Below are positions 1,714-20,733 of a DNA stretch of 62,610 bases, piece after piece (position 1 is the stretch's first letter; the number at the start of each line of letters is the position of its first letter). The notes below the pieces were generated by a model, which saw only the letters and a list, made by a program, of their open reading frames with translations, made no database searches and had not been told where the DNA came from. The DNA is taken from positions 1 to 62,610 of the forward strand of contig JABDCU010000008.1 of NCBI GenBank assembly GCA_013287965.1, written 5' to 3'. This DNA is from Candidatus Omnitrophota bacterium. Lineage in GTDB: Bacteria; Omnitrophota; Gorgyraeia; Zapsychrales; Fredricksoniimonadaceae. Made by a program: the position numbers and the translations under genes.

Positions 1714-1720
1714 GGGACTG

Positions 1721-2248
1721 ATGACCATGGACGTTTTGACAGCGGGCGCGGGGATATTTTCATTCCTTATTTTTTTATCCGTTCATTTCATTACATTTCG
1801 CTGGGTGCGCCCCGAAAATTTGTTGAGATCATTGCTTGTATGTGTGGTCACGGTGATGGGTTTCCCTGTTTTACTGATGGGATTTTTTTATATTTTAAAG
1901 GCGGCGGACGCAACACTGCAGGCGTGGATCTGTGCCGCCATCTTAGCATCGGTGCTGCAGGGTTTGCTGTGTTTTGTTTATGTCCTTTGCGTGTTCGGGC
2001 CCTATGAGACATCGGTGCGCATGCGCCTGGTGCGTGAAATTGCCTTGGCACCTCCCGGCGGCATCTCGATGGAGGAATTAGCCCGGTGTTATAACACGGA
2101 GATCATGGTCAATTTGCGCTTACAGCGGCTCTTGGGCTCAGGAGATATCATTGAAAAAGACGGCCTTTACCGGATCGGGCGGGAAGGGAATTTTTTCTTT
2201 ATTTTTGATGCCATTGCCGCGGTGCTAAAGAAATGGATCGCCCAATGA
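1721..2248 (+). CDS. Small membrane protein: 3 predicted TM helices plus C-terminal winged-helix-like tail (paralogue B)
   Basis: ATG at 1721 is preceded by GGGAGGG. The track start at 1691 would overlap the upstream gene. Tail is ..VRMRLVREIALAPPGGISMEELA..RLQRLLGSGDIIEKDGLYRI... Confidence 0.6.
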   Translation: MTMDVLTAGAGIFSFLIFLSVHFITFRWVRPENLLRSLLVCVVTVMGFPVLLMGFFYILKAADATLQAWICAAILASVLQGLLCFVYVLCVFGPYETSVRMRLVREIALAPPGGISMEELARCYNTEIMVNLRLQRLLGSGDIIEKDGLYRIGREGNFFFIFDAIAAVLKKWIAQ

Positions 2249-4479
2249 TCGTGGTTATTTATTCCATTTTATTGGCCATAGAAGTTTTGATCGTCGCTGT
2301 TCTTGTCTCCAATGCCATTCCCTTCGTGCATAATCCCTTCTGGGACACTGTATTGACCAATCAGCAAAGCAGCATATTTCCTAAAAGAGACCTATACCTG
2401 TACGCGTTTTTCTTATTAGTATGTTTTGGGACCTATGCGGGAATAGTGACCATCTTCCGCACGCGCCTCGAAAATCTCCAATGGCGTCAAAAATTAAACC
2501 ATTGGGCCGCAGCACAGGGGGCATGGGTTTTTATAGAGCTTTATGCTGCTTTTAAGATCATTGTGTACAATGACCCGCCTTGGGCCAGGATACTCCTTTA
2601 CGCAGGACTGACCGCTTCTTTTTTAAACAAGATATTTTGGCCTGAAATTTCTTATTTTACGCAAAAGAATTGGCCGCGCCTGGTGCTTTGGATTTCATCA
2701 AGGTGTTCGGGATGGCGCGGCAACGCGCTGGCGGTCTTATTTATTTTTGGTGTGATCTATATTCCTGACCCGCAGGCCGTGGTGGCCCAGCTTTATATGG
2801 GCGACCAGTTCCACACCTGGGACACTTCTTGTCTTGGAACGGTGTATGCCTTATTTAACGGCCTTCTTCCCGATGTGGATATTAATTCCAGATATGGGCT
2901 GGGGATGCCGGTGGTGATGGCAGGGATCATGAAATTCTTCGGAGGTTTTGATTACGTCAATGTTATCAAGGGGCTCTTGTGGATGGGGATCTTTTATTAT
3001 GTGACCTGGTTTTTTATCCTGCGACGGTGGTTTTTTAGCGGCCTGCTGGCTTTTGCCGCCATCCTCTTTGGCATGCGGGTGGCGATGTTCCCCATGTTCG
3101 TCATCCCATCGATCTGGAACGCGATGACGGAAAGTGTGATGAGATTTTGTTTTGACCCTTTATTTTTTTTGTTTTTATACAAACATGTGACCACCCATCG
3201 CAGGATATTTTTATGGGGCGCGTCCGTCATGGCCGGCATAGGGATGTTTTACATGTCCTCAACCGGCGCGTGGTTATTAATTGCTTTGTTAACCTATATG
3301 GGTATCCATTTTATTATCCCTAATATCCGTTCCCACATGGTCCGCTCCAAAGGCGATTATTTGTCCCTGGCGCGCATTATTTCTTTGGCGCCTCTTGTCA
3401 TGATCTTCCTGACGTGGCTGACAGTCAAAGGCAATGTTTTTAGGCCGGAATTCTGGAAGAACGTGATGGAATTCCACTTGATTTTTGCCAATGGGGTTGG
3501 CGGCGAATACCTCACCGCGGCCATCACGCAACGGAAAGAATTTTTATTCGCAGCCATCGGCTTGGGGCTGGTCTTGTTTTATGCCGGTTCCATTCTTTAT
3601 GCCATTCATCAGCTTTATTTTAAAAAGGCGGACCAAGGGCTTGTGTTTTCTATTCCCGTGGCTATTTATGGGCTGTGCCTGCAAACGTATTACATTGAAA
3701 TGGACTATTCATATTCCACCTTTACGCTTCCAGGTGTTTTTCTTTTGTTTTTTTGGATCGACCGCGCAAGCAAAGGACTGTCCCTTTTGAGGCAAAAACA
3801 AATCAGGGGGGTGCTGCTGGCGTCGGGTTTTTTCGCCTTGATCAGCGCGCCGATGTTCACGGCCTATCCTAATATTTTTAATTTGTCGCCCAACCCCATT
3901 GTTGACACCAATGTCTCCATCAAGCTCAGTAACGGAAAAATGTATTTTAATCAGCTGTACATTGATTTTCCGGAATGGGTGAAATTACCGGTCAATTCTT
4001 TAGGTGAAAAAGACGAGAAGCTTAAATATGAAAATGATTTTCAGACCGACGCGCAGTTGGTTGATTATTACAAACAGGAAACGGATTTTTCCAAGGACAC
4101 TGATCTGATCCGCCGGCTTACACCTGAAGGTGCGCGGGTGCCTTTGATCTCGAGCTTTGAGGTATTGATCCTCAGCGAGGCCCATCGCAAGCCGTTCTTT
4201 TATTATTTCCCTTTCTTGAGTTCCAAGCTGATGCGCACCAGGGCTTTTGTCACCTCGACACTTTATACTAAAACCCAGGTGGCCCAAATGCTTAGTCAAT
4301 TAGTACAAGCCAAACCTAAGTACATATTTATGGAGCGCATATTTTTAACGCCCCAGGTGCCCATGTGGTACGGCTATCAATTCGAAGACAGCATTGCTCT
4401 CATCAGATACATAGAAGCTTATTATCAACCGGACCAAACCGGCCAATTCCTCGTGGCCATGAAACGTAAGGAGGGATAG
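2233..4479 (+). CDS. Array paralogue 1 of 7: large polytopic membrane protein with soluble C-terminal domain, uncharacterised family (GT-C-like architecture is a hypothesis)
   Basis: Motifs KIFWPE, IPDPQAVVAQLYMGDQFHTWD, YGLGMP, GGFDY, AYPNIFNLSPNPIVD, LISSFEVLILSEAHRKPFFYYFP, GQFLVAMKRK. An alternative ATG at 2245 gives an ATGA overlap with the upstream stop. Confidence 0.9.
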   Translation: MDRPMIVVIYSILLAIEVLIVAVLVSNAIPFVHNPFWDTVLTNQQSSIFPKRDLYLYAFFLLVCFGTYAGIVTIFRTRLENLQWRQKLNHWAAAQGAWVFIELYAAFKIIVYNDPPWARILLYAGLTASFLNKIFWPEISYFTQKNWPRLVLWISSRCSGWRGNALAVLFIFGVIYIPDPQAVVAQLYMGDQFHTWDTSCLGTVYALFNGLLPDVDINSRYGLGMPVVMAGIMKFFGGFDYVNVIKGLLWMGIFYYVTWFFILRRWFFSGLLAFAAILFGMRVAMFPMFVIPSIWNAMTESVMRFCFDPLFFLFLYKHVTTHRRIFLWGASVMAGIGMFYMSSTGAWLLIALLTYMGIHFIIPNIRSHMVRSKGDYLSLARIISLAPLVMIFLTWLTVKGNVFRPEFWKNVMEFHLIFANGVGGEYLTAAITQRKEFLFAAIGLGLVLFYAGSILYAIHQLYFKKADQGLVFSIPVAIYGLCLQTYYIEMDYSYSTFTLPGVFLLFFWIDRASKGLSLLRQKQIRGVLLASGFFALISAPMFTAYPNIFNLSPNPIVDTNVSIKLSNGKMYFNQLYIDFPEWVKLPVNSLGEKDEKLKYENDFQTDAQLVDYYKQETDFSKDTDLIRRLTPEGARVPLISSFEVLILSEAHRKPFFYYFPFLSSKLMRTRAFVTSTLYTKTQVAQMLSQLVQAKPKYIFMERIFLTPQVPMWYGYQFEDSIALIRYIEAYYQPDQTGQFLVAMKRKEG

Positions 4480-6611
4480 TGGCGGACGTAAAGACAAAAA
4501 ATATTGTGGCCTACTCAGCGCTGGTCCTGGTGTTATCAGTGCAGCTTGTTATCATCCTCGCGGTCATCTCGAGCTTTATTCCTATCAAGCTTAACAGTTT
4601 TGTCCAGACACTCCTGCCTTTGTATTGGGACCAGGTGCGGCCGCACCGCCAGATGCAGATCTACGCGGTCTTCATTATTTTCGGGACCTTGGCCCAGGCC
4701 TGGGGCATGGTATTTTTAAAGAAACAGCTGCAGGATGATGGATTTGCCAAGGCCTTATGGCCCTTTGCCCTGATGCAATGGGCGTGGGTGCTGATAGAGG
4801 CGACGGCAGCCTTCAAGGTCTTTGTTTTTGGCAGTCCTGCCTGGGCCAAGTATTTTTTATATTTATCCCTGTGCGGGTGCGTTTTGAACACTATTTTTTG
4901 GCCGGAGTTTAAAAAGTGGTCAACACGCTCTTATCATTGGCTGGCCCAGCCTGCCGCGGTGTTATTGGTCAGCCGCATCGTGGACGTGCTGCTTGTGTGC
5001 GGTATCATTATTTTGCTGTGGCCGGCAGACATGGCTAAATTATTAGCGCATGTTTTTGCCTGGGATTATTTCCATCATTTGGACTTTTTCGTCATGTCTC
5101 CCGGCTGGGCCTATACGCACGGCCTGGCCATTAATAAGGACGTTGTCAGTGAATACAGTGTCGTGACCCCCGTGTTTTTAAGCACCGTCGCTAAATATTG
5201 CGGGGGCTTTAATTATGAGAATGTCATGCGTTTGATCGTTATCATGACCTTGGCCTATTATGCGGCGGTGTGGGCTTTTTTACGTGTTTGGCTCAAAAGC
5301 ACCTTGCTGGCTGCTTTCGGATTTTTGCTGGTGGTCAAACTCCAAATGTTCCACTGGGGCATTTTACCGGTGCTGTGGCGCTACCCCAGTGCCACGCCGG
5401 TGCGCTACCTTTTTGATCTCGTGCCCATCTTTTTGATATACAAACATGCCGAAGGCCTTGCCACAGGCGGGGCAGCCGGCAGCCGTGAAAAATATTTATG
5501 GCTGGCGGCTATGACCAGCGGATTGATGATGGCTTACACCATGGAGGTGGGAGTTTATTTGATCCTTGGCTTTTATGCCTACACCTTTATGCTTTTGACC
5601 TTGCCGCAGTTAAGGACAAAACTTTTTCATTTTCCCCGCGATATCCGCAAAATGACCGGGCTTTTTGTCCTGCCGTTCATAGCTGCTTTTGCCTTGTTAT
5701 GGATGGTGGGAGGCCGCGCGGTTGTGACCGGCGAATTCTGGAACAACACCACTGAGTTCGCACGGCTTTTCCTCAACGGCTTTGGCTCATTGCCGTATTG
5801 GGACGGGCTTAACGACAAACAGTTTTTTGCTTTTTGCATGGGATTTATCATCCCGGCGGTTTATGTCCTGACCATCATGATCGTCGGGGCATTTTTGTAT
5901 TTGCGCCAAATAGACACTCCCCAAATGTTCATCGTCTACGCGGCTGTCTATGGCTTGGGGATGTACCATTATTTTGTTTACCGCTCCGCGGTGACCAGTT
6001 ATTACGTGGTCTGCGTTCCCTTTGTTTTTGTATTGTGTTTTTGGCTCCAGCAGATCTTAAAACCAGTGGCCCTGCAATTGCGCCGGATCATTTTGTCCGT
6101 GCTGGTGCTGTTGACCTTGGGGGCCTTGGTAACGGGGTATTTATTTACCGTTTATCCTAATGTGCTTAACCTGTCAGGGCTTGACTTGGCCCCGGAACTG
6201 GCTTTTTATCAAAAAGAATTTCATTTTGAACCTGACGCGGCCTTGATCGACCGCCTGACAGGGCAAGATGAGCGGGTGGCCTTGATCAGCAGTTTTGAGA
6301 CGAGAATACTGATGGAGGCTGACCGCAAACCATTTTTTTATTATTTTCCCATGATCAATCCCGAGCCCATGGAAAATTTGGACTTTAAGGGTACGCAATT
6401 GTTCACCATTGACCGTGTGCGAAGGACATTGGGACAGTTAGAAAATGAAAAACCTGGCCTTGTGTTCATCGAGAAGAAATTGTTCTCAGGCCAATTGCCC
6501 GCGGCCTATTATCAGCATTTTCAAACATTGACGGTCTTAGTCCGGTATTTGACCCAGAACTATGCGCCGTATGATCAAGGCCAATTTCTGGTGGCATTAA
6601 AGCGCAAATGA
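4479..6611 (+). CDS. Array paralogue 2 of 7 (short-linker subtype)
   Basis: GTG start overlaps the paralogue 1 stop (TAGTG), with AAGGAGGG upstream. Motifs TIFWPEFK, FAWDYFHHLD, GGFNY, KLQMFHWG, YPSATPVRYLFD, VYPNVLNLS, LISSFETRILMEADRKPFFYYFP, GQFLVALKRK. Confidence 0.9.
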   Translation: MADVKTKNIVAYSALVLVLSVQLVIILAVISSFIPIKLNSFVQTLLPLYWDQVRPHRQMQIYAVFIIFGTLAQAWGMVFLKKQLQDDGFAKALWPFALMQWAWVLIEATAAFKVFVFGSPAWAKYFLYLSLCGCVLNTIFWPEFKKWSTRSYHWLAQPAAVLLVSRIVDVLLVCGIIILLWPADMAKLLAHVFAWDYFHHLDFFVMSPGWAYTHGLAINKDVVSEYSVVTPVFLSTVAKYCGGFNYENVMRLIVIMTLAYYAAVWAFLRVWLKSTLLAAFGFLLVVKLQMFHWGILPVLWRYPSATPVRYLFDLVPIFLIYKHAEGLATGGAAGSREKYLWLAAMTSGLMMAYTMEVGVYLILGFYAYTFMLLTLPQLRTKLFHFPRDIRKMTGLFVLPFIAAFALLWMVGGRAVVTGEFWNNTTEFARLFLNGFGSLPYWDGLNDKQFFAFCMGFIIPAVYVLTIMIVGAFLYLRQIDTPQMFIVYAAVYGLGMYHYFVYRSAVTSYYVVCVPFVFVLCFWLQQILKPVALQLRRIILSVLVLLTLGALVTGYLFTVYPNVLNLSGLDLAPELAFYQKEFHFEPDAALIDRLTGQDERVALISSFETRILMEADRKPFFYYFPMINPEPMENLDFKGTQLFTIDRVRRTLGQLENEKPGLVFIEKKLFSGQLPAAYYQHFQTLTVLVRYLTQNYAPYDQGQFLVALKRK

Positions 6612-6635
6612 CACCTGACGAAATGTCAGGTGTCA
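6609..6635 (+). other. Perfect 11-bp stem / 5-nt loop hairpin in the only sizeable intergenic gap of the array
   Basis: tgacacctgac-gaaat-gtcaggtgtca. The left arm includes the TGA stop of paralogue 2. No T-run follows, so this is not a canonical intrinsic terminator. Confidence 0.6.
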
Positions 6636-6669
6636 TCCTGAGCCAACGGGCGAAGGATCTCTACAACTT

Positions 6670-8892
6670 ATGAACCCTGTTATCCCTTTTTCCCTGGTCA
6701 TTTTTTGTGTCACGGTGCAGGTGTGGCTGGTATTGATCGCCTTGTCCGGTGTCATACCGCTGACGGACGCCGTAAGCACGGCGGTGTGGCCTGAGTGGCA
6801 GTATTTTGTGCGCCCCGAGAGGGATGCTTTATTGTTCCACTGTTTTGTAGGGCTGGCTTTGTTGGCCCAGGCCATTGGTATTTGGTCAATGCGGCATCAA
6901 TTAAACCAAGCCTCTTTTACCAAAACAGTGATGCCTTTTTTAGCGGCGGAGATGGTGTGGACCGCCCTGATGCTCAATGCCGCTTTTAAAGTGATCGTTT
7001 ATCATGACCGTCCATGGCTGGCCCAGGATGCTTTTATATTCCTTTCAGCAGGGGCATTGGCCAGCAAGGTGTTTTGGCCGGAGCTTAAAAGCTGGGCAGA
7101 GTGTTTTTATCAGAAGATCACGACATGTTCGTTTGGTATTAAAGCTGATGTGGCGGCATGCCTTGGTTTGGTCGTGCTGCTGTATGTTCCCGATGACAGG
7201 GCAGTGCTGGCCCGGATGTTTTTCGGCAATAATTTTCAGCATTTTGACAGTTTTACGGCACCTGCCTGGGCTTTTACCAAAGGTGCTGTGTTAAATGTGG
7301 ATGTGATGACCGAGTATGGGATCGGCATCCCGGTGATGATGTCCTGGTTTGCCAAGCTCACGGGCGGCTTTAGCTATACGCATCTATTATGGTTTTGGAT
7401 GGGAGGGACGATCACCTACTTTATTTTGTGTTTCGTATTTTTACGCCGCTGGCTGGGGTCTTTTGCCCTGAGCCTGATGGCGACCTTGCTGGCCATCAAA
7501 TTCCAAATGTTCCATTCCGGGGTCACCCCGTTTATTTTTACATTGCCGAGTGCCACGGTGGTGCGTTATTTTTGGGACATCCTTTTCTTTCTGTCCCTGC
7601 TGGGGCATTTGCGCACCTTGCGTAAGCGTTATTTGTTCAGGGCAGCTGTTTGCTGCGGAGTGCAGATCTTTTTCATGACGACCAGCGGCTATTGCCTGAC
7701 GATCGCTTTTATCGCGTATCTGACGGCTTTCATGGTCTTGGAACATTTAAGGCCTTTGGTATGTGAAAGTATCACGGAGGCTGTCAGGTTTTGCAGCTTT
7801 CTTTTCGTCGTACCTTTAACGACCTTAGGTTTTCTGGTTCTGACCCAGGGCGCCCATTTATGGACAGGGGAGTTTTGGTCCAATATGCAGGAATTTAATA
7901 ATTATTTCTTGTCCGGCTTTGGTTTGATGCCGATGTACGAGACCCTGCAGAACCATGAAACCATGGCAGGGTTAATGGGATTTTTTATTCCGGTTGTTTA
8001 TATGGGCACATTTTTAGTCACGGCAGGACTTTTGTTCTATCGACAAGTTCCACGGGAAGACCTCATGGCCGTGGTCCTTTCTTTGTACGGCATGACCTTG
8101 TACCACTATTATATCGGCCGCTCCGCACCGACGAGCTATTATGTGGTTTGTGTTCCCTATGTGTTTATTTTATTTTTTTGGCTGCAGCGATGGCTTTTGG
8201 TTTTAAAACAGGACAGGCGCCGGCTGATACTTCTGTCCTTGGGAGCGGTCATTGTTTATGCTTTGCTCACCAATCATACGTATTTGGCCTATCCTAATAT
8301 TTTTAACGTTTCACGAAACCCCATTGTTGATCCGTTGGTGGTAAGCCCTATACCTGATGGGCGTTCTTATTTTAACCAAAGCGTCAGCAAGCTCACCGAA
8401 GACCAGAAACTGCCTGCCAATTCTTTAGGCAATAAGGATGAGGGCATCAAATACGAAAAAGATTTTAAGACAGATGCCCGGCTCGACCAATATTACGACC
8501 AGGAATCTGATTTTGGCCGGGACGCGGCGTTGATCGCGGCTTTGACCAAGCCCGCAGACGCAGTGCCTTTATTAAGCAGTTTTGAAATTAAAATGCTGAT
8601 ACAGGCGGACCGCCGGCAATTCTTTTATTATTCGCCGATCCTGCTGGCCCGTCCCATGCGCATGCGCACCTTTCCTAACAGCACGATGTACAGCCTCATC
8701 CACGCGCGCAGAACACTGCACCAGCTTCAAGAAGCCAAGCCGGAATATATATTTATGGAGAAGGTCTTTTTGCAGGCGCCGGGTTTTGCCAATTTTAAGG
8801 ATGCTTCCCTGGCGTCGGTACTTAACTATGTTTTTGAGAATTATTCGCCGGATGCCCAGGGCCAATACCTGATAGCGATGAAGCGTAAATGA
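6670..8892 (+). CDS. Array paralogue 3 of 7 (long-linker subtype)
   Basis: Motifs WPEWQYFVRPERD, KVFWPELK, YVPDDRAVLARMFFGNNFQHFD, KFQMFHSG, AYPNIFNVSRNPIVD, LPANSLGNKDE, LLSSFEIKMLIQADRRQFFYYSP, GQYLIAMKRK. Confidence 0.9.
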   Translation: MNPVIPFSLVIFCVTVQVWLVLIALSGVIPLTDAVSTAVWPEWQYFVRPERDALLFHCFVGLALLAQAIGIWSMRHQLNQASFTKTVMPFLAAEMVWTALMLNAAFKVIVYHDRPWLAQDAFIFLSAGALASKVFWPELKSWAECFYQKITTCSFGIKADVAACLGLVVLLYVPDDRAVLARMFFGNNFQHFDSFTAPAWAFTKGAVLNVDVMTEYGIGIPVMMSWFAKLTGGFSYTHLLWFWMGGTITYFILCFVFLRRWLGSFALSLMATLLAIKFQMFHSGVTPFIFTLPSATVVRYFWDILFFLSLLGHLRTLRKRYLFRAAVCCGVQIFFMTTSGYCLTIAFIAYLTAFMVLEHLRPLVCESITEAVRFCSFLFVVPLTTLGFLVLTQGAHLWTGEFWSNMQEFNNYFLSGFGLMPMYETLQNHETMAGLMGFFIPVVYMGTFLVTAGLLFYRQVPREDLMAVVLSLYGMTLYHYYIGRSAPTSYYVVCVPYVFILFFWLQRWLLVLKQDRRRLILLSLGAVIVYALLTNHTYLAYPNIFNVSRNPIVDPLVVSPIPDGRSYFNQSVSKLTEDQKLPANSLGNKDEGIKYEKDFKTDARLDQYYDQESDFGRDAALIAALTKPADAVPLLSSFEIKMLIQADRRQFFYYSPILLARPMRMRTFPNSTMYSLIHARRTLHQLQEAKPEYIFMEKVFLQAPGFANFKDASLASVLNYVFENYSPDAQGQYLIAMKRK

Positions 8893-8896
8893 TCTT

Positions 8897-11146: not shown

Positions 11147-11149
11147 TTG

Positions 11150-13741
11150 ATGAAGAAATTATTCCAATCAAACATTATCACCGCGCTTGTCTTGTTCGCG
11201 GCCGCGGTCTTGGTCAGCATAGCCGTCTACCCTGAGGTTTTTATCAGCTCCAAGATGAGTGTCGTGATCTGGTCTGATTATTGTGTCGAATACGCGCCAA
11301 CCTTTATTTTAACCACCTTCCTATACCAGGGCGGGCTTCAGCTGTGGGATTTTTTCGCGCAGATGCCGTATTTTCACACCTACGCCGTGCTGGGATTATT
11401 TAAATTCCCCAACGTGGTGACGGCTATTTCATATTATCTGCTGGCGCCTTTCACAGAAGATTCCAGCCATCTTTTCCACCAGGTTTTTATCTGGGGCTAT
11501 TTGATGACACTTTTATTCTTAAGGGTCACAGGGATATTCCTGTTGTTAAAAACAGTGACGAAAAACCGCCCCTTTTTAAGTGCCGGCACCGTGCTCTTTG
11601 CCGTATTCTTTAGTCAAATGGCGTTCTTAAGGGGAACGCCCTATATGAGTTATTTTCCTTTAGGCATGTATTTTGTCGTGCGCCTGTTTCAAGACCTGCA
11701 GCTGCGTTTTCTGGTCGCCCTATTTTTCTTTTTTATGATCGTGCTCAGCACAGAATTGCTTCACGGCGCGTATTTATATTTGCCCATGCATTTTTTTATC
11801 ATCGCGGGCATTTTATGGCGGGTTTTCTTTAAGCCCGCCGTGGACAGGCCTTTTTGGACTTATTGGCGATGGAAGGACATGGCATGGGCCATCCTGGCAG
11901 CGGCCCTGATGATGGCGCCGTATTTGTTCATCATGAAATTTTCGTTGAATGATCTTGCCTTTGGCCAGGACAATAGCCGCATCGCGCATCCTTTCAGCCC
12001 GCAATGGTATTTTCAAAATCCCCAATTAGATCTAGGCAGCCCCGGTACTTTTTTCGGGGCGCTCTTGAATATACAAAAGGTGGATGCCTTGTTTTATGTA
12101 GGCCTGTCCTTTCTTTTTTTGGCGCTGGCCGGGTTTATTTTAAACCGCCATAAATTAAAGTGGTTTTTTGCCTTAGGGGTGTTCTTTTTATGGCTTTTAA
12201 GTTTTCCCCGTGAAGGGATCCATCTCGGCCTTATCGCGCACTGGGTCAATGTTTTGACAAACCCCCTAAAAGCCTTACCCCGTTCCTACCGGTTTACCTG
12301 TGAAGGGATGCTTCCCTATTTATTGATGCCGTTGGCTGTGATGGGCATAGAGGCCATGGTGGAGCTCTTTAAAGGAAAAAAATATCCTGCCGCGGCCTTG
12401 GGTTCTTTGGCCGGGATGACGTTTTTACTTGTATTGAACGGTATTTTTATAGTACCTCCTGAGGTTTCTGCTTACCTGATCGCGTGCGGCTTATTGCTGA
12501 TAGGGGGGATTGCCCGGGTCCATTTTAGGAATTCCCCGCGGGCGAGGAGTTTTCTCGTTGGGACCATCTGTTTTTTGGCAGTCATTGATATTTGCTTTAT
12601 TATTTATCAGTCAAAACACACCTTTGAGCGTTTCTGTTACCGTAAGCCCACTATTTTGGATGCTGCCCCGCAGGCGGGTGTCGTGGAGTATGATTATGAA
12701 AACCCGTCTATTTTTCCTTACAGGAATTCGTACACCTTCCATTTTTCTTATAATGACGAACTCGATATATGGTTCCCTCACGGCCTGTCGTCGGACCTGC
12801 ACCATGTCATCAACCAGGCGTTGAATTTTACTTTTCTCAACGGCTATAATCCCAGGCACAAGGAGTTTGCGAAATGGCTGAATGACCCGCAAATGCTGAC
12901 CTATTTAACGCAGAACAATGAATTCATTTTCCTGGCCCAGTCAGCGATCAAGGCCTCACCCGGGGCCTTAGGCCGGATCTGTTCAGCCGGGCTCGCCCGT
13001 CAGGTGGTGACAGTAGAAGATCCCAAGGGGAACTTGAATTTAGCGGACCAATGGCCGGGCAGCATCACGCCCAAACCCCAGGAAGATCTGCAGTACAGTC
13101 AAGTGGCAGGGACAATAGATGATAATACCCAACCCAACCAGTATCTTCAGACGGGGGGCATGATCATCTATACCCTGTATTTACCTTCTGATTTTCCCGG
13201 TCATTTGGCATCATCATGGTTTCCCGCCGAACAGAGGTATTTACGGTTCTTTGTCGAGGGAGAAGGAGGGCAATGGCGGGAACTCCAGGCAGCCCAAGGC
13301 GAATTGATCAGGCCATATACCTTTGATGTGCAGAATATCAAGCAAGGTGAATTGAAGGCAGCTTTTTCCAAGAATGATTTTCCCATGCACCACAAATGCG
13401 TTTTATTTTATCCTTCCAGTGAGAACCAGGGTGTTGAAAAAGTGTGGCGCAAGCAATTTGATAACTTAGGGACCATCTACAGGGCCAAGAGGGATGGCTG
13501 GTGGGTCGGCCATTATCCGTATGATCCTAAATGGAGGATATCTGTTGACGGCAAACCAGTGCCTTATTACCGGGTGGATAAAAGTTTTATCGGTTTTCCG
13601 CTGGGTCGCGGAGAGCATAAAATATTGGTCCAGTATTGGCCGCATTCGCCGTTGAGGATATTTCTTTTTATTTCCGCCCTGTTAACGACCTTGGGACTTC
13701 CCCTCTTGATTTTTTTAGCGTTGAAATGGGAGAATAAATGA
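11150..13741 (+). CDS. YfhO-like large membrane protein (GT-C-type candidate) interrupting the paralogue array
   Basis: Many TM helices. C-terminus ..ISVDGKPVPYYRVDKSFIGFPLGRGEHKILVQYWPHSP.. plus a final TM matches my memory of the YfhO family C-terminal pattern. It shares none of the array motifs. ATG at 11150; the track starts at TTG 11147. Confidence 0.55.
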   Translation: MKKLFQSNIITALVLFAAAVLVSIAVYPEVFISSKMSVVIWSDYCVEYAPTFILTTFLYQGGLQLWDFFAQMPYFHTYAVLGLFKFPNVVTAISYYLLAPFTEDSSHLFHQVFIWGYLMTLLFLRVTGIFLLLKTVTKNRPFLSAGTVLFAVFFSQMAFLRGTPYMSYFPLGMYFVVRLFQDLQLRFLVALFFFFMIVLSTELLHGAYLYLPMHFFIIAGILWRVFFKPAVDRPFWTYWRWKDMAWAILAAALMMAPYLFIMKFSLNDLAFGQDNSRIAHPFSPQWYFQNPQLDLGSPGTFFGALLNIQKVDALFYVGLSFLFLALAGFILNRHKLKWFFALGVFFLWLLSFPREGIHLGLIAHWVNVLTNPLKALPRSYRFTCEGMLPYLLMPLAVMGIEAMVELFKGKKYPAAALGSLAGMTFLLVLNGIFIVPPEVSAYLIACGLLLIGGIARVHFRNSPRARSFLVGTICFLAVIDICFIIYQSKHTFERFCYRKPTILDAAPQAGVVEYDYENPSIFPYRNSYTFHFSYNDELDIWFPHGLSSDLHHVINQALNFTFLNGYNPRHKEFAKWLNDPQMLTYLTQNNEFIFLAQSAIKASPGALGRICSAGLARQVVTVEDPKGNLNLADQWPGSITPKPQEDLQYSQVAGTIDDNTQPNQYLQTGGMIIYTLYLPSDFPGHLASSWFPAEQRYLRFFVEGEGGQWRELQAAQGELIRPYTFDVQNIKQGELKAAFSKNDFPMHHKCVLFYPSSENQGVEKVWRKQFDNLGTIYRAKRDGWWVGHYPYDPKWRISVDGKPVPYYRVDKSFIGFPLGRGEHKILVQYWPHSPLRIFLFISALLTTLGLPLLIFLALKWENK

Positions 13742-15744
13742 AGCGCAATATCCTCTATTTATCCGCGCTTGTTTTCGTCTTATCTTTGCAAGTACTGATC
13801 ATCCTGGCTTTTATTTACCAGTTCATCCCTTTGAAGGCGGCCGCGATCACCGAAGATGTTCCTGCGTCACTGCTCAAGGTGTTCCAGCCTAACCGCAATT
13901 ATTTTTTCTATCATGCCTTTATTGCCGCGGCGATCATAGGGGAAATGCTGGCCCTTTATCTATACCGTAAACGTTTGGAGCATGCCGACGTGGCAGGGGA
14001 GGTCCGGGACTTTTTGCTCTGCGAGACGGTATGGGTGTCGTGGCAGCTTTTCGCGGTGTTCAAGGTCCTGCAATACAATAATCCCGGGTGGGCAGAAGTT
14101 TTATTATATGCCGGTTTTGCCGCCGCCTTGCTGGCAAAGATCTTTTGGCCGGAATTAAAGCGCGGCCTTGCTTTTTTAAAGGATTACCTTCGGCGGGAAA
14201 TACCGGTGTCATGGCGTAAATTTGCGGACGCGGGTATTATTTTTATCCTGTTGGCGGTGATCGCGGTCCCTAATGGCGAAAAAGCGTTGCTGCGCATGGC
14301 CCTTGCCGACGGTAATGATCATTTTGACCAATGGCTGATGGCGCCGTTGTGGGCCTACCATAAAGGGCTGATACCTGCCTTGCAGTTTTTTAATCCGTTA
14401 AATTGGGGAGTGCCGGTCTTGGTCCACGCGCTGGTGAGTTTGATGGGTAGCGTGACGTGTGCGCATGTGATCGCAGTCCTTTGTTTATTGGCCATCGTGT
14501 ATTATGCGGTTTTTTATTATTTGTTGCGTTCCTGGTTAGGGACCTTGACAGCCATTTTTGGCGTGCTGTTGGCGGTAAAGCTGCAGATGTTTAACATAGG
14601 CGTTAACCCGTTGATCTGGGCTTTCCCGGCGCAGAGCATGCTGCGGCATTTATTCGACGTGGCGGTATTTTTCTGCCTTTTGTTTTATGCCCAAGGGCGA
14701 GGGGAGCTGTTCCTTTGGCTGGCCGCGGCAGCGGTGGGGATATCTTTGAGTTTTGTTTTTGATACCGGCGTGTATTTGCTGGTGGCTTTGTACGCGTATG
14801 TGGCCGCGCTTATGTCGTTCAAAGATACCCGTTGTTCATTGTGCCCAACCCCAAGGCAGTGGCGTAAGGTTTTAGGATTGGCTTTTCTGCCGTGGTTGGT
14901 GATGATCGCCGCGTTATTCTTTTGCATTGGCCCTGCTGTCCTGCATAGGGCATTTTGGATGGAGAGCTTCAAAGATGTTCCCCGTTGGCTCGCCGGTGCT
15001 GATTCCATATCGGTGTATTCTTGCTTAAGGGACAGGAATTTTTTTGCGTTCTTTGCTTCATTTTTTCCGCCTTTGCTCTACGCGGCAGGCATGGCAGCAA
15101 CGGTCAGCATGGTCTATTTTCGTTCCTGGAAAAGTGAAAAGTTATTCTTGGTCCCTTTAAGTGTTTATGGCTTAGGAGTCTATGCCCATTTTTTATGGCA
15201 TGCCAGCATCAACTACTATTACATGGCGCCTTTACCTTTGGTTGGCTGTGTCTGTTTTTGGATGACCCAGTACCTCGACGGGTTTAAAAATGCCCAACGG
15301 CGTTTAGTTAAATTGATCTTGGCCCTGCTTACCTTGATCGGCTTATTCACCAATGTCATTTTTACTTACTATCCGAATGTTTTTAACATGGCCGGGCAAG
15401 TATGGGACCGGCAAATGGCGTATTACCAGGCCAATTTTAATTTTAAGAATGATGCTGATCTCATCCGCCAAGCGACATCGCCTGATGAGCGGGTGGCCTT
15501 GATCAGCGGTTTTGAAATACAAGTATTGCTGCAAGCTGACCGGGCACCTCTCTTTAATAATAGCCTGGCGCTGATGGACCAATTGGATAAGGCCAAGCCG
15601 CGGCAGGTGTTTGTTAATAAAAGCATATTGAACATGGCCAATAACCCAGCAATTAGCGCATTGACCGATTACTTAAAAGCGCATTATCAATACACAGGCA
15701 AACAAAGCGATAACCTGGCCTTATTAGAGAAGACCCATGAGTAG
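13738..15744 (+). CDS. Array paralogue 5 of 7 (short-linker subtype, most divergent)
   Basis: ATGA overlap with the YfhO-like stop. Motifs KIFWPELK, LRMALADGNDHFDQW, KLQMFNIG, YYPNVFNMAG, LISGFEIQVLLQADRAPLFNN. Lacks the terminal KRK. Confidence 0.9.
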   Translation: MKRNILYLSALVFVLSLQVLIILAFIYQFIPLKAAAITEDVPASLLKVFQPNRNYFFYHAFIAAAIIGEMLALYLYRKRLEHADVAGEVRDFLLCETVWVSWQLFAVFKVLQYNNPGWAEVLLYAGFAAALLAKIFWPELKRGLAFLKDYLRREIPVSWRKFADAGIIFILLAVIAVPNGEKALLRMALADGNDHFDQWLMAPLWAYHKGLIPALQFFNPLNWGVPVLVHALVSLMGSVTCAHVIAVLCLLAIVYYAVFYYLLRSWLGTLTAIFGVLLAVKLQMFNIGVNPLIWAFPAQSMLRHLFDVAVFFCLLFYAQGRGELFLWLAAAAVGISLSFVFDTGVYLLVALYAYVAALMSFKDTRCSLCPTPRQWRKVLGLAFLPWLVMIAALFFCIGPAVLHRAFWMESFKDVPRWLAGADSISVYSCLRDRNFFAFFASFFPPLLYAAGMAATVSMVYFRSWKSEKLFLVPLSVYGLGVYAHFLWHASINYYYMAPLPLVGCVCFWMTQYLDGFKNAQRRLVKLILALLTLIGLFTNVIFTYYPNVFNMAGQVWDRQMAYYQANFNFKNDADLIRQATSPDERVALISGFEIQVLLQADRAPLFNNSLALMDQLDKAKPRQVFVNKSILNMANNPAISALTDYLKAHYQYTGKQSDNLALLEKTHE

Positions 15745-17950
15745 TTTAAAAGACCTTAAAAACTGGGGGCTATTTTCCCTGACAGCCCTGCTCTTGAGCA
15801 TCCAGGCCTTGCTGCTGATGATGAAAGCTGTTAATTTTTTTGAACAGCTGCCTCAATTCGTCATTTTAGGCATTGGGCTGGTGCTTTTTATCATCGGACA
15901 AATAGCAGCAGTGATAATTTATAAGCATAGGGCCCAAACAGGGGAGAAGGAAAATGGTCTGCGGGCATTTTTGATCGTGGAAGCCGTGTTGACTTTTTTC
16001 CTGTTGAGCGCCCTGGTCAAAACCATTTTTTATGATTACAAGGGGGAAATGGCCCAGCGCGCGTACAATATTCTTTTGATATTGGCTGTTTTAAATAAAT
16101 GGTTCTGGCCTCAAGTCAGGGAAACAGGACGCCGGGCCTGGGTGCTGATCAACGCAAGGGCCAATGAAAAAATATTGAGGTCATGGACCATCGTCATTGG
16201 GACGGTTTTATTGCCGCTTATTATTTTTGTGCCGCATTTTGAGCGGGTCCTGGCGCGCATGTATATCGGCGAGCAATTCCATCATTATGATATTTTTGTG
16301 ATGTCTTCCGGGTGGGCCGCGTATAACCATCACCTCATTGATGTGGACCAGACTTCTCAATATGGCGTAGGGATGCCGTATATTTTTGCCGAGTTATGCC
16401 GCTGGATGGGCGGGTTTTCATATAGCCATGTTTTTCTCATCATCATGACCGGCACCATGATCTATTACGTGCTGTTCTTCTGGCTTTCTTTGCGCTGGTT
16501 TAAAAGTGCGGCCTTCACTTTGGCGCTTATGCTTTGGGCCATACGCGTGCAGATGTTCCATCCGGGGGATTATCCGTTTGTGTTGACCTATCCAAGCACC
16601 ACGGTAATACGGTATTTCTTTGATATTTTTTTCTTTGCGGCCATTTTCTGCCATTTGCGGCGTGGGCGTCCGGCCTGGCTGTTGGCCGCTGCTGTTGTGA
16701 GCGGCATTTCGGTGTTTTATATGGATTGCACCGGGGTCTTCTTAGTTACCGCGTATTACGCTTATTTGACATGCCTGTTGAGCATGCCGTATACCCGCTC
16801 CATGCTTTATAGGACCCAGAGGGATTTGGCGCCTTTAGGAGGGTATTTTCTTTTGCCCGTGGCGGTGATATTTGTGTTTTTTTACAAAACAGTGGGCCAT
16901 CATATGTTCACGGCGCAATTCTTTCAAAACATGACCAGCATCGAAGAATATTATTTAAGCGGCATCTGGACGTATCCTATCTATAACAATTTTATATACC
17001 ATAATTTTTGGGCAGGGCTGGTGGGCTTTATCATCCCGGCGGTGTGGGTGTTTACCATGATCTTTGCGGGAGGGATGTGTTATTTTAAGAAATTTTCCAG
17101 GCAAAATATCCTCATCATCGTGGTCTGTGTTTACGGCCTGGGGGTCAACCATTATTATGTCGTGCGCGCCCTGCTGACCTGTTATTATGTGACAGCCCTG
17201 CCTTTTATTTTTGTCTGCGGCTGGTGGCTGAAGCTTTTGTTGTGGAGCTGGCCGCGCAGGGTTCGGACCAACGCTATCATGGCCTCGCTGTTCATCTCTG
17301 CTTGGGCGCTTGTCACCAACCATAATTTTATGGCCTATCCTAATATTTTTAATTTTTCGCGCAATCCCATGGTTGACATGCTGACAGCCCAGCCCTTGCC
17401 TGCGGATCTGTCGACGTATTTTAACCATCTTTACCGCAATGACCCCGCGGCATTGAAACTTCCCGCCAATTCCTTAGGGCAGACAGATGAGGAGCTTTTG
17501 ACGGAAAAAGATTTCAAGTCGGATGATGAGCTGACGGCGTATTACCGGCGGGAATATGATTTCACCAAGGATGCCGGTCTGATAAAATCGCTGACATTGC
17601 CTGGAAGCCCGGTTGCCGTGATCAGCGCTTTTGAAACCAAGATCCTGATGCAGGCAGACCGTCCGCCTCTTTTTTATTATTTCCCGTTGCTCAGCTCCAG
17701 ACCTAAGCATATGCGGACCATGCCGCTTAATTTTTTGCATACGAGCCCCGGACGCTTTAACCGCAAGGCCATCCAAGAATTGGAAGAGGCCCGTCCGGAA
17801 TATGTTTTCTTGGAGAGGATTTTCCTTTATGATTATCCTAAAGCATACGCGGACAAACCGGAAAACATCATCCCCATTGTTGATTATGTGCGCCTGCATT
17901 ATGCGCCTTATAAGGCAGGGGAATATTTAATGGCTATGAAACGCAAATGA
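15737..17950 (+). CDS. Array paralogue 6 of 7 (long-linker subtype)
   Basis: 8-nt overlap with paralogue 5. Motifs KWFWPQV, FVPHFERVLARMYIGEQFHHYD, RVQMFHPG, AYPNIFNFSRNPMVD, LPANSLGQTDE, VISAFETKILMQADRPPLFYYFP, GEYLMAMKRK. Confidence 0.9.
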   Translation: MSSLKDLKNWGLFSLTALLLSIQALLLMMKAVNFFEQLPQFVILGIGLVLFIIGQIAAVIIYKHRAQTGEKENGLRAFLIVEAVLTFFLLSALVKTIFYDYKGEMAQRAYNILLILAVLNKWFWPQVRETGRRAWVLINARANEKILRSWTIVIGTVLLPLIIFVPHFERVLARMYIGEQFHHYDIFVMSSGWAAYNHHLIDVDQTSQYGVGMPYIFAELCRWMGGFSYSHVFLIIMTGTMIYYVLFFWLSLRWFKSAAFTLALMLWAIRVQMFHPGDYPFVLTYPSTTVIRYFFDIFFFAAIFCHLRRGRPAWLLAAAVVSGISVFYMDCTGVFLVTAYYAYLTCLLSMPYTRSMLYRTQRDLAPLGGYFLLPVAVIFVFFYKTVGHHMFTAQFFQNMTSIEEYYLSGIWTYPIYNNFIYHNFWAGLVGFIIPAVWVFTMIFAGGMCYFKKFSRQNILIIVVCVYGLGVNHYYVVRALLTCYYVTALPFIFVCGWWLKLLLWSWPRRVRTNAIMASLFISAWALVTNHNFMAYPNIFNFSRNPMVDMLTAQPLPADLSTYFNHLYRNDPAALKLPANSLGQTDEELLTEKDFKSDDELTAYYRREYDFTKDAGLIKSLTLPGSPVAVISAFETKILMQADRPPLFYYFPLLSSRPKHMRTMPLNFLHTSPGRFNRKAIQELEEARPEYVFLERIFLYDYPKAYADKPENIIPIVDYVRLHYAPYKAGEYLMAMKRK

Positions 17951-20184
17951 TGATCTATTGGTCCGCCGTCTTAAGTGTCTTAATATCCATTGAATGTGTC
18001 TTTGCCGGCACATGCTTTTCCATTCTTTTTCCCCCCAAGCCGTCGCCCTTGGTCCAGGATTTTTTTACCACCTATCAGCACGCGATCACGCCTAAATATG
18101 ATGTATTGTTCTTGCGGCTTTTTATCGTGGCGGGTGTGGCTGCTTTTATTTTATTGATGCGGTTTTGCGGCCGGATGACCCCGCAAAAACATGCTTCATT
18201 CAAATATTTTACCTTTGTGCAGGCAGCGGTCATTATTACCGAGACATTCTTTCTATTCAAATTTGCCGTTTACCGCTATCCGGTGTTCCTTAATGGGTTT
18301 TACATAGCGTTGATGGCAAGTGCCGCCATCAAAATATTCACTCCGGAAGTCATGAAGTCATTGCGGCGTTTTGATAAGCGTATGAAAGATAAAACGCCTT
18401 TCTTAAATCTTTCTCTCTGGCTGACAGCAGCGGCAGGGGTGCTTATTCCCTTGATCATCTGGGTCCCGGATGTGGAAGGCTCCGTGGCCAGGATGTTTTT
18501 TGGCGAACAGTTCCACCATATTGATTCGATATTGATGGTGCCCGGATGGGTGCATCTGTCGGGGAATATTTTAGGGATAGATAATATATCCCGTTACGGC
18601 GTCGGGGCGCCTGTGCTTGTTGCTGAAATAGCACAGCGTTTATTGGGCCAATTTAGTTATGTCCATGTAGTGATCGTTACGATGGCCGTCAGTGTGGTGT
18701 ATTATTGGATATGGTTCTATGCCTTGCGCCTTGTTTTAAAAGACGCTGTCTGGGCATTCATTGCTATTTTTCTGGGCTTGCGCCTGCAATTTTTTAATAT
18801 AGAGACCTTCCCGTTTATTTTTACCTATCCTCAGGACACGCCTTTGCGGTTCTTTTTCGATAGTTTGTTTTTTTTATTTTTGGTCCTGCATACGCAAAGC
18901 GGCCGGATGAGATGGCTGTATTTAGCCTCGGCGGTGAGCGGCTTTTTTGTTTTTTATATTACCGGCGAGGGAGTATTCACCTTGGCCGCCTTTTATGTCT
19001 TTTTGGTCCTGCGTGAAGTGTTTGTGGTGATGAATCCCGGCGGTTTGATGCGGCGTGTCAACAAAGGACAGGCGGCCCTGTTATTAGGGACCCCATGGGT
19101 GGTTTTTTTATCCGGTTTCTGGATGGTGGCAGGCGGGCATATTTTTACTAAGGTTTTCTGGACCAATCAGCTTGAACTTATCCGTTTTTATGAGGCGGGC
19201 GGCCAGGCTGCTTTGATGATCAATAATTTGACACCTCCTTTTGTTGACCGCGCTTCCATCGCCTTTCTTTTGCCTGTGCTGTATTTGTTCGTCCTGGTTG
19301 TTTTGTTAGGAAAGCTGATGCAAAAGGCCCTTAAAATAGACGGCTTGCTCATGCTTGGCGCGTCTGTTTTTCTGCTGATGAGTTATCATTATCACGCGGC
19401 AATTGCCAACAATATGCCGTCTTATTTGCGCAATGGGGTGGTCATCGCGATGCTGACAGTTTATGTGCTTAAAGGGATGACGGCACGCCTGGGGCAATAT
19501 CATCAACGGCTTTGGAAGATTGCCTGCGGTATTTTAGTTTTTGTGATGATGGTGACGACGCATCAATTCCTGCTGCATCCGAATATTTTTAATTTGTCGC
19601 GTAACCCCATGACGCACCCGGTGGTAAGCGAAGTTCCCATCGGAAGGAACAGTTATTTTAGCCATTTGTTCATCAGTTATCCGGACGCCTTTAAACTGCC
19701 GGTCAATGGGTTGGGGCAGAAGGACGAGATGCTGGTGACGGAAAATGATTTTAGCGATGATAATCAAATGAAGGAACTTTTCAGAAAAGAATCGGATTAC
19801 GCTAAGGATGCCGCTTTGATCCAATCATTGACCGCTCCTGAAACAGAGGTCCCGCTGGTCTCTTCGTTTGAAAATCTGGTCCTCATGCAAGCCAAGCGCC
19901 GTCCTTTTTTCTATACCTATATGCTGGTCAACGCACAGCCCAGGCGCATGCGTAAATTCCCCGTTACCATGCTTTATACCAAAGGTAATTTACAGCGGGA
20001 GATCAGCCGTATTGAGAATTTCAAGCCTCCATATATATTTGTAGAGAAAACATTCCTTGTTTCCCCGATACCTCGGGCATATTTGTACGATAATGAGGAT
20101 TTGATCGCCCTGTTGTCGTATATTTTCAGCCACTATGGGTCGTATAAGCAGGGAGAATTCTTGGCAGCATTAAAACGTCAATAA
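17947..20184 (+). CDS. Array paralogue 7 of 7 (long-linker subtype)
   Basis: ATGA overlap with paralogue 6. Motifs KIFTPEV, WVPDVEGSVARMFFGEQFHHID, RLQFFNIE, LHPNIFNLSRNPMTH, LPVNGLGQKDE, LVSSFENLVLMQAKRRPFFYTY, GEFLAALKRQ. Confidence 0.9.
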   Translation: MMIYWSAVLSVLISIECVFAGTCFSILFPPKPSPLVQDFFTTYQHAITPKYDVLFLRLFIVAGVAAFILLMRFCGRMTPQKHASFKYFTFVQAAVIITETFFLFKFAVYRYPVFLNGFYIALMASAAIKIFTPEVMKSLRRFDKRMKDKTPFLNLSLWLTAAAGVLIPLIIWVPDVEGSVARMFFGEQFHHIDSILMVPGWVHLSGNILGIDNISRYGVGAPVLVAEIAQRLLGQFSYVHVVIVTMAVSVVYYWIWFYALRLVLKDAVWAFIAIFLGLRLQFFNIETFPFIFTYPQDTPLRFFFDSLFFLFLVLHTQSGRMRWLYLASAVSGFFVFYITGEGVFTLAAFYVFLVLREVFVVMNPGGLMRRVNKGQAALLLGTPWVVFLSGFWMVAGGHIFTKVFWTNQLELIRFYEAGGQAALMINNLTPPFVDRASIAFLLPVLYLFVLVVLLGKLMQKALKIDGLLMLGASVFLLMSYHYHAAIANNMPSYLRNGVVIAMLTVYVLKGMTARLGQYHQRLWKIACGILVFVMMVTTHQFLLHPNIFNLSRNPMTHPVVSEVPIGRNSYFSHLFISYPDAFKLPVNGLGQKDEMLVTENDFSDDNQMKELFRKESDYAKDAALIQSLTAPETEVPLVSSFENLVLMQAKRRPFFYTYMLVNAQPRRMRKFPVTMLYTKGNLQREISRIENFKPPYIFVEKTFLVSPIPRAYLYDNEDLIALLSYIFSHYGSYKQGEFLAALKRQ

Positions 20185-20523: not shown

Positions 20524-20530
20524 TGCTTGT

Positions 20531-20716: not shown

Positions 20717-20733
20717 AAAACTATTAGAAAACT

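Follow-up and report, generated by a model that had tools for sequence, protein, structure and literature searches.

Glycosyltransferases of the GT-C type build surface glycans of bacteria and eukaryotes. Omnitrophota are uncultivated bacteria with very small cells and are thought to depend on other organisms. Here we analyse a 62,610-nucleotide stretch of a Candidatus Omnitrophota genome (contig JABDCU010000008.1, positions 1 to 62,610; hereafter the window), which carries a tandem array of seven strongly diverged membrane-protein paralogues (M1 to M7) split by a gene of the YfhO type. In one of the closest described arrangements, three-component periplasmic glycosylation, a polyprenyl-phosphate sugar synthase is combined with a flippase and a GT-C enzyme, as in Citrobacter ORF15/ORF14/ORF12 (GT136; PMC11127046). 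Structure prediction now brings new GT-C families to light regularly, GT136 in 2024 being one example (PMC11127046).

Two further systems bear on the locus. In the YfhO family (CsbB/YfhO of B. subtilis, PgfS/PgfM1 of S. mutans), a GT-C-type enzyme works with a polyprenyl-phosphate sugar synthase of glycosyltransferase family 2 (GT2). A distant YfhO member lies inside this and many related arrays, so both families work in the same loci. The mycobacterial Emb/Aft enzymes (embCAB, aftA-D) are a GT-C paralogue series that uses a polyprenyl-phosphate monosaccharide to build a complex envelope glycan, and the array described here is likewise a paralogue series, predicted to have the GT-C fold. We propose that it is probably the variable part at the heart of a locus for periplasmic glycosylation in a diderm bacterium, in which GT-C(A)-fold paralogues of ancient subfamilies are shuffled between genomes at a fixed site.

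Results

Organisation of the array

Profile searches covered a comparative set of 28 related loci, labelled L001 to L028. Family members fall into a 'long' class, which carries an insert of about 45 residues (profile positions 564-609) in the C-terminal domain, and a 'short' class without it. Seven paralogues and the YfhO-type gene make up eight open reading frames (ORFs), all on the plus strand, and their coordinates, overlaps and gaps are exactly those given by the initial annotation:

2233..4479, plus strand: M1, 748 residues, long class; family profile E=0; nearest relative L008_9998 (71%)
4479..6611, plus strand: M2, 710 residues, short class, without profile positions 564-613; nearest relative L011_2325 (77%)
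6670..8892, plus strand: M3, 740 residues, long class, the modelled member; nearest relative in L011 (76%)
8897..11146, plus strand: M4, 749 residues, long class; nearest relative L011_6699 (66%)
11147..13741, plus strand: distant YfhO-type membrane protein, 864 residues, about 15 hydrophobic segments and a terminal transmembrane (TM) helix
13738..15744, plus strand: M5, 668 residues, short class, the most diverged; nearest relatives L025_4916 and L022_6 (about 66%)
15737..17950, plus strand: M6, 737 residues, long class; nearest relatives L022_2146 and L025_7055 (about 66%), following the M5 orthologue as here
17947..20184, plus strand: M7, 745 residues, long class; no close orthologue found (best 38%)

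The junctions, in order, are as follows:

M1/M2: 1-nt overlap (TAGTG)
M2/M3: 58-nt gap
M3/M4: 4-nt gap
M4/YfhO-type gene: 0 nt
YfhO-type gene/M5: 4-nt overlap
M5/M6: 8-nt overlap
M6/M7: 4-nt overlap

M2 starts at a GTG codon with a GGAGG Shine-Dalgarno sequence ahead of it, and M5 additionally lacks profile positions 660-683 and the terminal KRK motif.

The seven proteins (668-749 residues) are alignable along their entire length; pairwise identity is 23-43%, and 33 columns are invariant. The family profile recovers each of them with E between 1e-214 and 0, well outside anything chance would give. The longest exact nucleotide word common to paralogues is 24 nt, so they are neither recent duplicates nor an assembly artefact; the initial annotation had described them as homologous, strongly diverged and devoid of long nucleotide identity, and this stands. 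The same architecture was found again in independent assemblies from three different samples, and this recurrence together with the divergence rules out an artefact or recent duplication of the array.

Twelve motifs had been listed as occurring in the same order in most or all members. Ten are colinear, eight of them in five to seven of the seven proteins, whereas the two long composite patterns match no member as literally written. The composite VPD...AR has its spacing off by one, and the elements of the composite patterns are still visible in the alignment. LR.W[LF] is found at the aligned position in four members (M5 has a fifth match, at another position) and YH[YH][YF]..RS in three.

Scanning the array for terminators and promoters returned intragenic consensus noise only, in T-rich membrane-protein coding sequence, and no intergenic terminator within 2233-20184. 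A promoter-like site lies at 1111-1140, ahead of a gene for a small membrane protein (protein A, below). The overlapping or abutting genes, the lack of an intergenic terminator-like site and the promoter-like site are consistent with co-transcription of the array from upstream of protein A. An Rfam search of the window found no RNA families. AT skew is strongly negative (-0.14 to -0.23) over positions 2001-20000 and about 0 elsewhere in the window; both the skew and the inflated count of intragenic terminator-like sites arise because membrane-protein codons are T-rich.

A sizeable family without a curated model

None of the seven members matched Pfam or NCBIfam, and Pfam at E<=10 gave nothing relevant for 18 family members. 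The YfhO profile (PF09586) in particular did not match the seven paralogues even at E<=10, and neither WWD[YWF]G nor WWD, covering the oligosaccharyltransferase (OST) hallmark WWDYG, occurs in any of them. A word-indexed search initially returned 14 unnamed relatives only. An exhaustive search by profile gave 1,141 representative clusters at E<=1e-3, of which 406 were at E<=1e-30; the family is therefore sizeable but uncurated. As there is no curated model, annotations at present give its members only as 'hypothetical protein'. Searches of the literature turned up no account of the family, nor of such arrays in Omnitrophota.

The genome scan for arrays was made with a 5-sequence alignment, and its matches are labelled Candidatus Omnitrophota, with some metagenome-assembled genomes (MAGs) labelled 'Planctomycetales' or 'uncultured bacterium'. 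Genes for LptE, BamD-like, LpxL-like and Lnt proteins mark the window as part of a diderm genome, and the window is syntenic with the related MAGs, which likewise places it probably in Omnitrophota. A viral structure library gave no significant match and therefore no evidence for phage-borne relatives. The seven are an uncurated, new sequence family inside the known GT-C(A) fold, distinguished by an extra N-terminal module, a conserved C-terminal domain and an unusual density of paralogues, and accompanied by a new, conserved pair of accessory proteins (A and B, below).

Predicted fold and topology

An AlphaFold2 model was made of M3, on an 18-sequence alignment, and the other six members are its full-length homologues. 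The model (mean predicted local distance difference test score, pLDDT, 80.5; predicted template-modelling score, pTM, 0.82) has about 15 membrane helices followed by a soluble domain at residues 541-740, in line with the dozen or more helices and soluble C-terminal domain of about 150-200 residues read earlier from the sequences. When it was compared with PDB structures by Foldseek, 33 of the first 34 matches were GT-C-type membrane transferases that use lipid-linked sugars, the exception being a glycosylphosphatidylinositol (GPI)-transamidase chain at rank 25. Eighteen matches had E<=1e-3 and probability 1.00. The GT-C matches comprised AglB (E 3e-6), DPY19, STT3, ArnT, PglB, Pmt4, EmbA/B/C and ALG9; AglB, PglB and STT3 were the best (E 3e-6 to 1e-3). 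Transporters appeared in the list only at E>0.3 and probability <0.25, and SEDS-, Wzy- or WaaL-type structures were not among the 50 matches listed. The model thus supports a GT-C fold for the seven.

Topology was derived from the model helices and from K/R and D/E counts over 18 aligned sequences (positive-inside rule and charge bias). Four helices (1-134) make up the N-terminal module (1-151), and a basic, cytoplasmic amphipathic helix precedes the core. The predicted GT-C core then has 11 helices (157-533), the first at 157-171, with its N-terminus inside. The first core loop, EL1 (172-235), contains helices at 176-185, 189-203 and 219-230 and averages 2.4 K/R against 5.6 D/E; being acidic and poor in K/R, it is predicted to be periplasmic. 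A further periplasmic loop, at 399-428, is modelled with low confidence. The C-terminal domain comprises 200 residues of alpha/beta structure and is highly conserved; it follows an outward-going helix and would therefore be periplasmic. We infer that both the acidic first loop, with the presumed active site, and the C-terminal domain face the periplasm. Three features of GT-C(A) enzymes are present in the prediction: the fold superposes on solved GT-C structures, the first extracytoplasmic loop is acidic with a conserved acid, and the soluble domain lies outside.

Five charged residues are the most conserved ones over 168 diverse sequences. D193 of the FHHxD motif in EL1 is 91% conserved, and R299 (97%) and D303 (96%) lie at the periplasmic end of core helix 4 in the model. 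D618 and R648 (both 99%) are in the C-terminal domain, which is the most conserved part of the family, above the membrane core. All five residues are kept in each of the seven window members. The N-terminal 4-helix module behaves differently: it is duplicated in some relatives and absent from others that begin at profile position ~160, and therefore the core starts at about that position. Such differences are seen among the family representatives P0015, P0046, P0083, P0089, P0113 and P0148: some relatives, of up to 1,166 residues, have a second copy of the module in front of an otherwise complete protein, at times together with additional membrane segments that resemble the family, and others have no module at all. 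The module, being duplicated or lost, is therefore an independently evolving unit. The possibility that such N-terminal extensions are informative fusions, for example to a GT2, was ruled out, as they contain no Pfam domains, are not fused small-TM proteins and are duplications of the family's own module.

Variation of the array among relatives

Array copy number varies among the related genomes surveyed. Tandem arrays of 2-6 copies recur in the related loci, and at the shared anchor the number is 2-7 when the window is counted. The larger arrays include L013 (five copies and two YfhO-type genes, on a 159-kb contig), L014/L020 (six copies and one YfhO-type gene, on a 400-kb contig) and L017 (at least five copies and one YfhO-type gene; a further match, over profile positions 3-550, was called there as a shorter sixth).

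In a neighbour-joining tree of 72 family members, the nearest relative of each window member is in another genome. Those of M2, M3 and M4 are three consecutive genes of L011 (77, 76 and 66%), and those of M5 and M6 are adjacent genes in L022 and L025 (about 66%). The corresponding locus of L011, the closest relative found, contains the small-TM pair and M2-M3-M4 only, three copies against seven here. The anchor genes of L016 are 70-88% identical to those of the window, yet identity between its three copies and any window member is only 39-47%. Since nearest relatives lie in other genomes, sub-blocks are conserved and the L016 copies are diverged beside conserved anchors, the paralogues represent ancient subfamilies. 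Each array is a mosaic whose conserved sub-blocks are subject to gain, loss and replacement at a fixed site in the chromosome.

Downstream, the variable locus ends at these conserved anchor genes:

20203..22774, plus strand: tRNA-binding domain protein, CxxCxxCC protein, LPG_synthase_C-like protein and RNase T-like exonuclease

They also follow the arrays in L001, L002, L004, L016, L018, L020, L024 and L025. Within the anchor cluster, 20203-22157 (plus strand) encodes a stand-alone tRNA-binding domain (MetG C-terminal/CsaA-like), a CxxCxxCC metal-binding protein and an LPG_synthase_C protein (DUF2156-type), a combination that hints at aminoacyl-tRNA-dependent lipid or glycan modification.

Within arrays, a short member is followed directly by a long one in 22 of 25 adjacencies (window and L001-L025; nominal binomial p 0.003, the loci being phylogenetically non-independent), and the smallest arrays consist of one short and one long member. 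This order could reflect heterodimeric units.

Neighbouring genes

The genes flanking and following the array that bear on its function are:

26..337, plus strand: NAD-dependent sugar epimerase/dehydratase-like protein, a C-terminal fragment cut by the window edge, recognised by eye
303..1010, plus strand: sugar-1-phosphate nucleotidyltransferase (Pfam NTP_transferase, E 2.5e-24)
1198..1713, plus strand: small membrane protein A, 171 residues, with hydrophobic N-terminal helices and a soluble C-terminal domain
1691..2248, plus strand: small membrane protein B, 185 residues, overlapping M1 by 16 nt
24818..26116, plus strand: nucleoside-diphosphate (NDP)-sugar C-methyltransferase-like protein, likely for donor-sugar tailoring (Pfam Methyltransf_13/14/23)
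26113..26856, plus strand: GT2, candidate maker of a lipid-linked donor (Pfam Glycos_transf_2)
57132..58595, plus strand: methyltransferase-GT2 fusion, a second candidate donor synthase, with best matches AglJ/ArnC/PgfS below curated cut-offs

The embedded YfhO-type gene had been recognised from sequence alone, and it does score above the Pfam YfhO cut-off (36.8 bits against 28.5), with a match that covers residues 775-841 only; its match to PgfM1 has E 1.5e-6. Orthologues are embedded in the arrays of L005, L013, L014/L020, L017, L019, L025 and L026.

An epimerase and a nucleotidyltransferase do lie upstream, as the initial annotation had it, the former as the terminal fragment listed above, called by eye and from relatives in which a full 313-residue Epimerase/RmlD_sub_bind/GDP_Man_Dehyd gene occupies this position. 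The best NCBIfam matches of the nucleotidyltransferase (MurU, HddC and archaeal GlmU-like) are all below their cut-offs. Both GT2s had been called DPM1/ArnC-like; their best matches are indeed polyprenyl-phosphate sugar synthases, below curated cut-offs. For the GT2 at 26113-26856 these are the polyprenyl-phospho-GalNAc synthase PpgS (1.2e-15), AglJ and a Dol-P hexose transferase. Homologues of the methyltransferase-GT2 fusion are interleaved with arrays in L004, L014/L020 and L017, and C-methyltransferase homologues adjoin arrays in L003, L007, L008 and L022. In relatives, genes for a GT2, an epimerase, a short-chain dehydrogenase/reductase (SDR) or a methyltransferase stand immediately upstream of the small-TM pair, including a 247-residue GT2 directly upstream of it.

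The small-TM pair precedes arrays in at least 10 loci, whether a family member or a YfhO-type gene comes first. Protein A has no match in Pfam or NCBIfam beyond a weak HTH_45 hint (E 0.24), and its homologues lie directly upstream of the arrays of L006, L007, L008, L011, L012, L015, L023 and L026-L028. Protein B has 112 unnamed homologues. Its AlphaFold2 model (pLDDT 84) predicts three TM helices, a basic juxtamembrane helix with the conserved sequence GPYETSxRMRLxRE and a cytoplasmic winged-helix domain, for which the best fold matches were MarR/ArsR/GntR/CggR winged-helix domains, all non-significant (E>=0.12). The idea that the pair is a GtrA- or SMR-like flippase is not supported, as there is no profile match and three TM helices with a winged helix are unlike known flippase folds.

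In relatives, a YfhO-type gene, a 73-residue protein and a C-methyltransferase occupy the region that would lie beyond the upstream edge of the window, so the locus probably extends that way. The 73-residue protein has a single TM segment, is highly conserved (…SVNWRLCTIERGKYLLGIxYNG…THGITHEFIKENI) and is found at L008:5802-6023, L026:8383-8601 and L027:8481-8702, where a YfhO-type gene stands on its upstream side and the sugar-modifying enzymes or the small-TM pair on the other; the corresponding region would fall outside the window, beyond its 5' edge. It has no Pfam match.

Elsewhere in the window, 54008-55378 (minus strand) and 58966-60213 (plus strand) encode proteins of 456 and 415 residues that had been described as ArnT/PMT-like. 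They are multi-span membrane proteins, and neither has a Pfam or NCBIfam match, with Pfam taken even to E<=10. On visual inspection, the first helix of each is directly followed by an acidic motif (SCDAIGYQD and LWNDEYYS) that recalls the first loops of GT-C enzymes. The two proteins flank a carbamoyltransferase, the methyltransferase-GT2 fusion and a GDSL-like protein, and together with these neighbours may form a second glycan-modification cluster. An earlier tally of about ten GT-C-like genes leans on these two proteins, which lack a profile match, and is tentative.

Other features of the window

The release factor 2 gene prfB (37567-38700, plus strand) has a classic programmed +1 frameshift site: the ATG at 37567 opens a short frame ending AGGGGG TAT CTT TGA C (~37621-37640), and in the main ORF (37681-38700) the PCRF match does not begin until profile position 12. 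A DNA polymerase III delta-like ORF (32417-33070, plus strand; 217 residues) is shorter than typical bacterial homologues. A UvrC-like ORF (34864-36117, plus strand; 417 residues), with GIY-YIG, UVR and RNase H-like domains and no C-terminal HhH, is also shorter than typical. These short ORFs may reflect genome streamlining or ORF calling.

Discussion

The predicted fold and topology, the acidic and basic residues conserved on the periplasmic side and the neighbouring genes all agree with glycosylation of the three-component type, which is the best-supported reading of the locus. The GT-C-type call of the initial annotation is in accord with the fold matches, the periplasmic topology and the GT2 and sugar-nucleotide context; a GT-C fold is predicted, no confident match to a non-glycosyltransferase family was obtained and no known unrelated role was found for the family. 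From this evidence we infer enzymatic activity, a lipid-linked donor, an acceptor and different specificities for each member. In the proposed mechanism, the cytoplasmic nucleotidyltransferase, epimerase and C-methyltransferase would make NDP-sugars, which the DPM1-like GT2s would load onto polyprenyl phosphate. The lipid-sugar would then be flipped to the periplasmic side by a further component. There the seven paralogues and the YfhO-type enzyme, facing the periplasm, would each transfer a sugar to an envelope acceptor, each subfamily having its own donor, linkage or acceptor specificity. Blocks of genes are gained, lost and replaced between related genomes at the fixed site, as in O-antigen or capsule loci.

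Several observations weigh against this reading. No sequence-level tie joins the seven to any curated GT-C family in Pfam or NCBIfam, the family profile found no chain among PDB sequences at E<=10 and thus no sequence link to solved structures, and hhalign detected no relationship between the family and the neighbouring YfhO-type gene (probability 0.2%). The template-modelling scores (TM-scores) of the Foldseek matches to GT-C structures are modest, at 0.3-0.54 (best Pmt4, target TM-score 0.54). The Asp right after core helix 1 ('VPD', D175), where GT-C enzymes usually have their catalytic base, lacks conservation, being N in M5, H in M6 and shifted in M2. The GT2s of the window lie 6 and 37 kb from the array, with matches below curated cut-offs. 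Pfam identified no GtrA, SMR or MATE/Wzx flippase in the window or in annotated related loci, and no acceptor pathway (Wzx/Wzy, ABC exporter or initiating phosphoglycosyltransferase) was identified nearby.

How the paralogues divide their work could be read in other ways. The single, tightly coupled operon would suit a fixed sequential assembly line, in which the seven and the YfhO-type enzyme act in obligatory order and each adds the next residue of one defined complex glycan, after the manner of ALG3/9/12/6/8/10 or the mycobacterial Emb/Aft enzymes; the subfamilies are ancient, distinct and individually conserved, gene order is kept inside sub-blocks, and the C-terminal domain, given its strong conservation, might bind one shared acceptor as it grows. 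Copy number, however, ranges from 2 to 7 at the same site, where L011 has only M2-M3-M4, and L016 carries non-orthologous copies beside flanking genes that are 70-88% identical. This turnover of copies and cassettes speaks against an obligatory pathway, because such a pathway would be expected to keep its steps, and we regard the assembly line as improbable. The data fit a scheme of variable length or variable decoration better, and a sequential order within one strain is possible. We read the locus as hypervariable, apparently built from ancient paralogue cassettes rather than as a fixed assembly line, and the differing copy sets among related genomes suggest a variable cell-surface sugar coat. 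A more specific version holds that this is a previously unrecognised family centred on Omnitrophota and that its modules are two-gene units (short and long, perhaps heterodimers like Pmt1/2 or EmbA/B), shuffled between genomes at one hotspot to diversify the surface glycan, with the winged-helix pair and the 73-residue protein of relatives as a new kind of accessory that replaces a flippase or couples donor supply to the array; this is tentative, and we consider it more likely wrong than right.

The acceptor, and even the chemistry, allow further alternatives. The best fold matches (AglB, DPY19, STT3, PglB and Pmt4) modify proteins, the embedded gene and one GT2 resemble, respectively, PgfM1 and PgfS of the streptococcal pair for protein O-glycosylation (PMC12041528), and no genes for polysaccharide export or polymerisation were seen beside the arrays. 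Accordingly, the paralogues might glycosylate periplasmic or surface proteins and not a polysaccharide or lipid, each with its own targets or sequons, in the way of PMT, DPY19, TMTC, OST or PgfM1. Foldseek E-values, however, do not set protein-modifying GT-Cs apart from those that modify lipids or glycans (ArnT and Emb were also matched), the OST hallmark is absent from the members and no candidate acceptor protein is encoded in the locus, which leaves this alternative rather unlikely. Far less probable still is that the family uses a GT-C-like scaffold for something else, such as lipid or glycan translocation, polymerase or ligase chemistry with diphosphate-linked donors, or a structural or receptor function, or that most copies are catalytically dead. 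The lack of conservation of the canonical Asp after the first core helix would fit such a role, as would a soluble domain more conserved than the membrane core, and with no flippase found, something in the locus must move the donor. Against it, the top fold matches are GT-C transferases save for one weak GPI-transamidase, no transporter exceeds probability 0.25, and D193, R299 and D303 occur in every one of the seven and in over 90% of the 168 relatives, which argues for retained catalysis. A non-glycosyltransferase role is thus unlikely.

If the locus is indeed a hypervariable site of periplasmic glycosylation, it would be a strong candidate for the basis of surface variation in Omnitrophota, of their interaction with hosts or prey and of their evasion of phages. 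The density of seven copies and a YfhO-type enzyme in 18 kb is unusually high. The winged-helix membrane pair, together with the lack of any known flippase, points to an undescribed accessory function, and a profile for the family would improve annotation across many metagenomes.

Comparison with known systems

The OST enzymes AglB, PglB and STT3 resemble the family in having a multi-helix membrane domain followed by a periplasmic or lumenal C-terminal domain, with a conserved motif directly after the last helix (here YPNxFN). Unlike them, the family lacks WWDYG and gives no STT3 profile match, and the GT2s nearby suggest that its donors are monosaccharides linked through a monophosphate, not oligosaccharides linked through a diphosphate. 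Pmt1-Pmt2 heterodimers share the GT-C(A) core with 11 membrane helices, and the pairing of two Pmt subfamilies recalls the short-then-long gene pairs seen here; gene order prompts the hypothesis that short and long members likewise heterodimerise. In PMTs, by contrast, the soluble MIR domain sits in a loop and not at the C-terminus, and a DE motif comes right after TM1. The YfhO family differs in that the seven paralogues lack both a YfhO profile match and the terminal TM helix of YfhO.

The Gtr type (GtrA/GtrB/Gtr*, Shigella and Salmonella; GT136) combines a DPM1-like GT2, which charges polyprenyl phosphate, with a periplasm-facing enzyme of the GT-C fold; the counterparts here would be the candidate GT2s and the paralogues with their predicted fold. 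Small membrane proteins are encoded between the GT2 and GT-C genes (here in relatives), and in both cases the GT-C differs from locus to locus, which would alter the surface glycan. The differences are in number, family and partners. There are seven plus one GT-C genes per operon here against one; the family is a different, uncurated one, with an extra 4-helix N-terminal module and a conserved 200-residue C-terminal domain; and in place of a GtrA, SMR or MATE flippase, none of which was seen, the small partners are a pair of predicted 3-TM winged-helix proteins.

Emb offers a parallel in layout: embCAB is a tandem array, its proteins have periplasmic C-terminal domains, EmbA/B/C are among the fold matches and EmbA and EmbB form a heterodimer. 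No sequence relationship exists, however, and Emb proteins are about 1,100 residues long with domains of the carbohydrate-binding-module (CBM) type, in an array of three members against seven here. Whereas the Emb set is essentially fixed in its lineage, the arrays described here are swapped between relatives.

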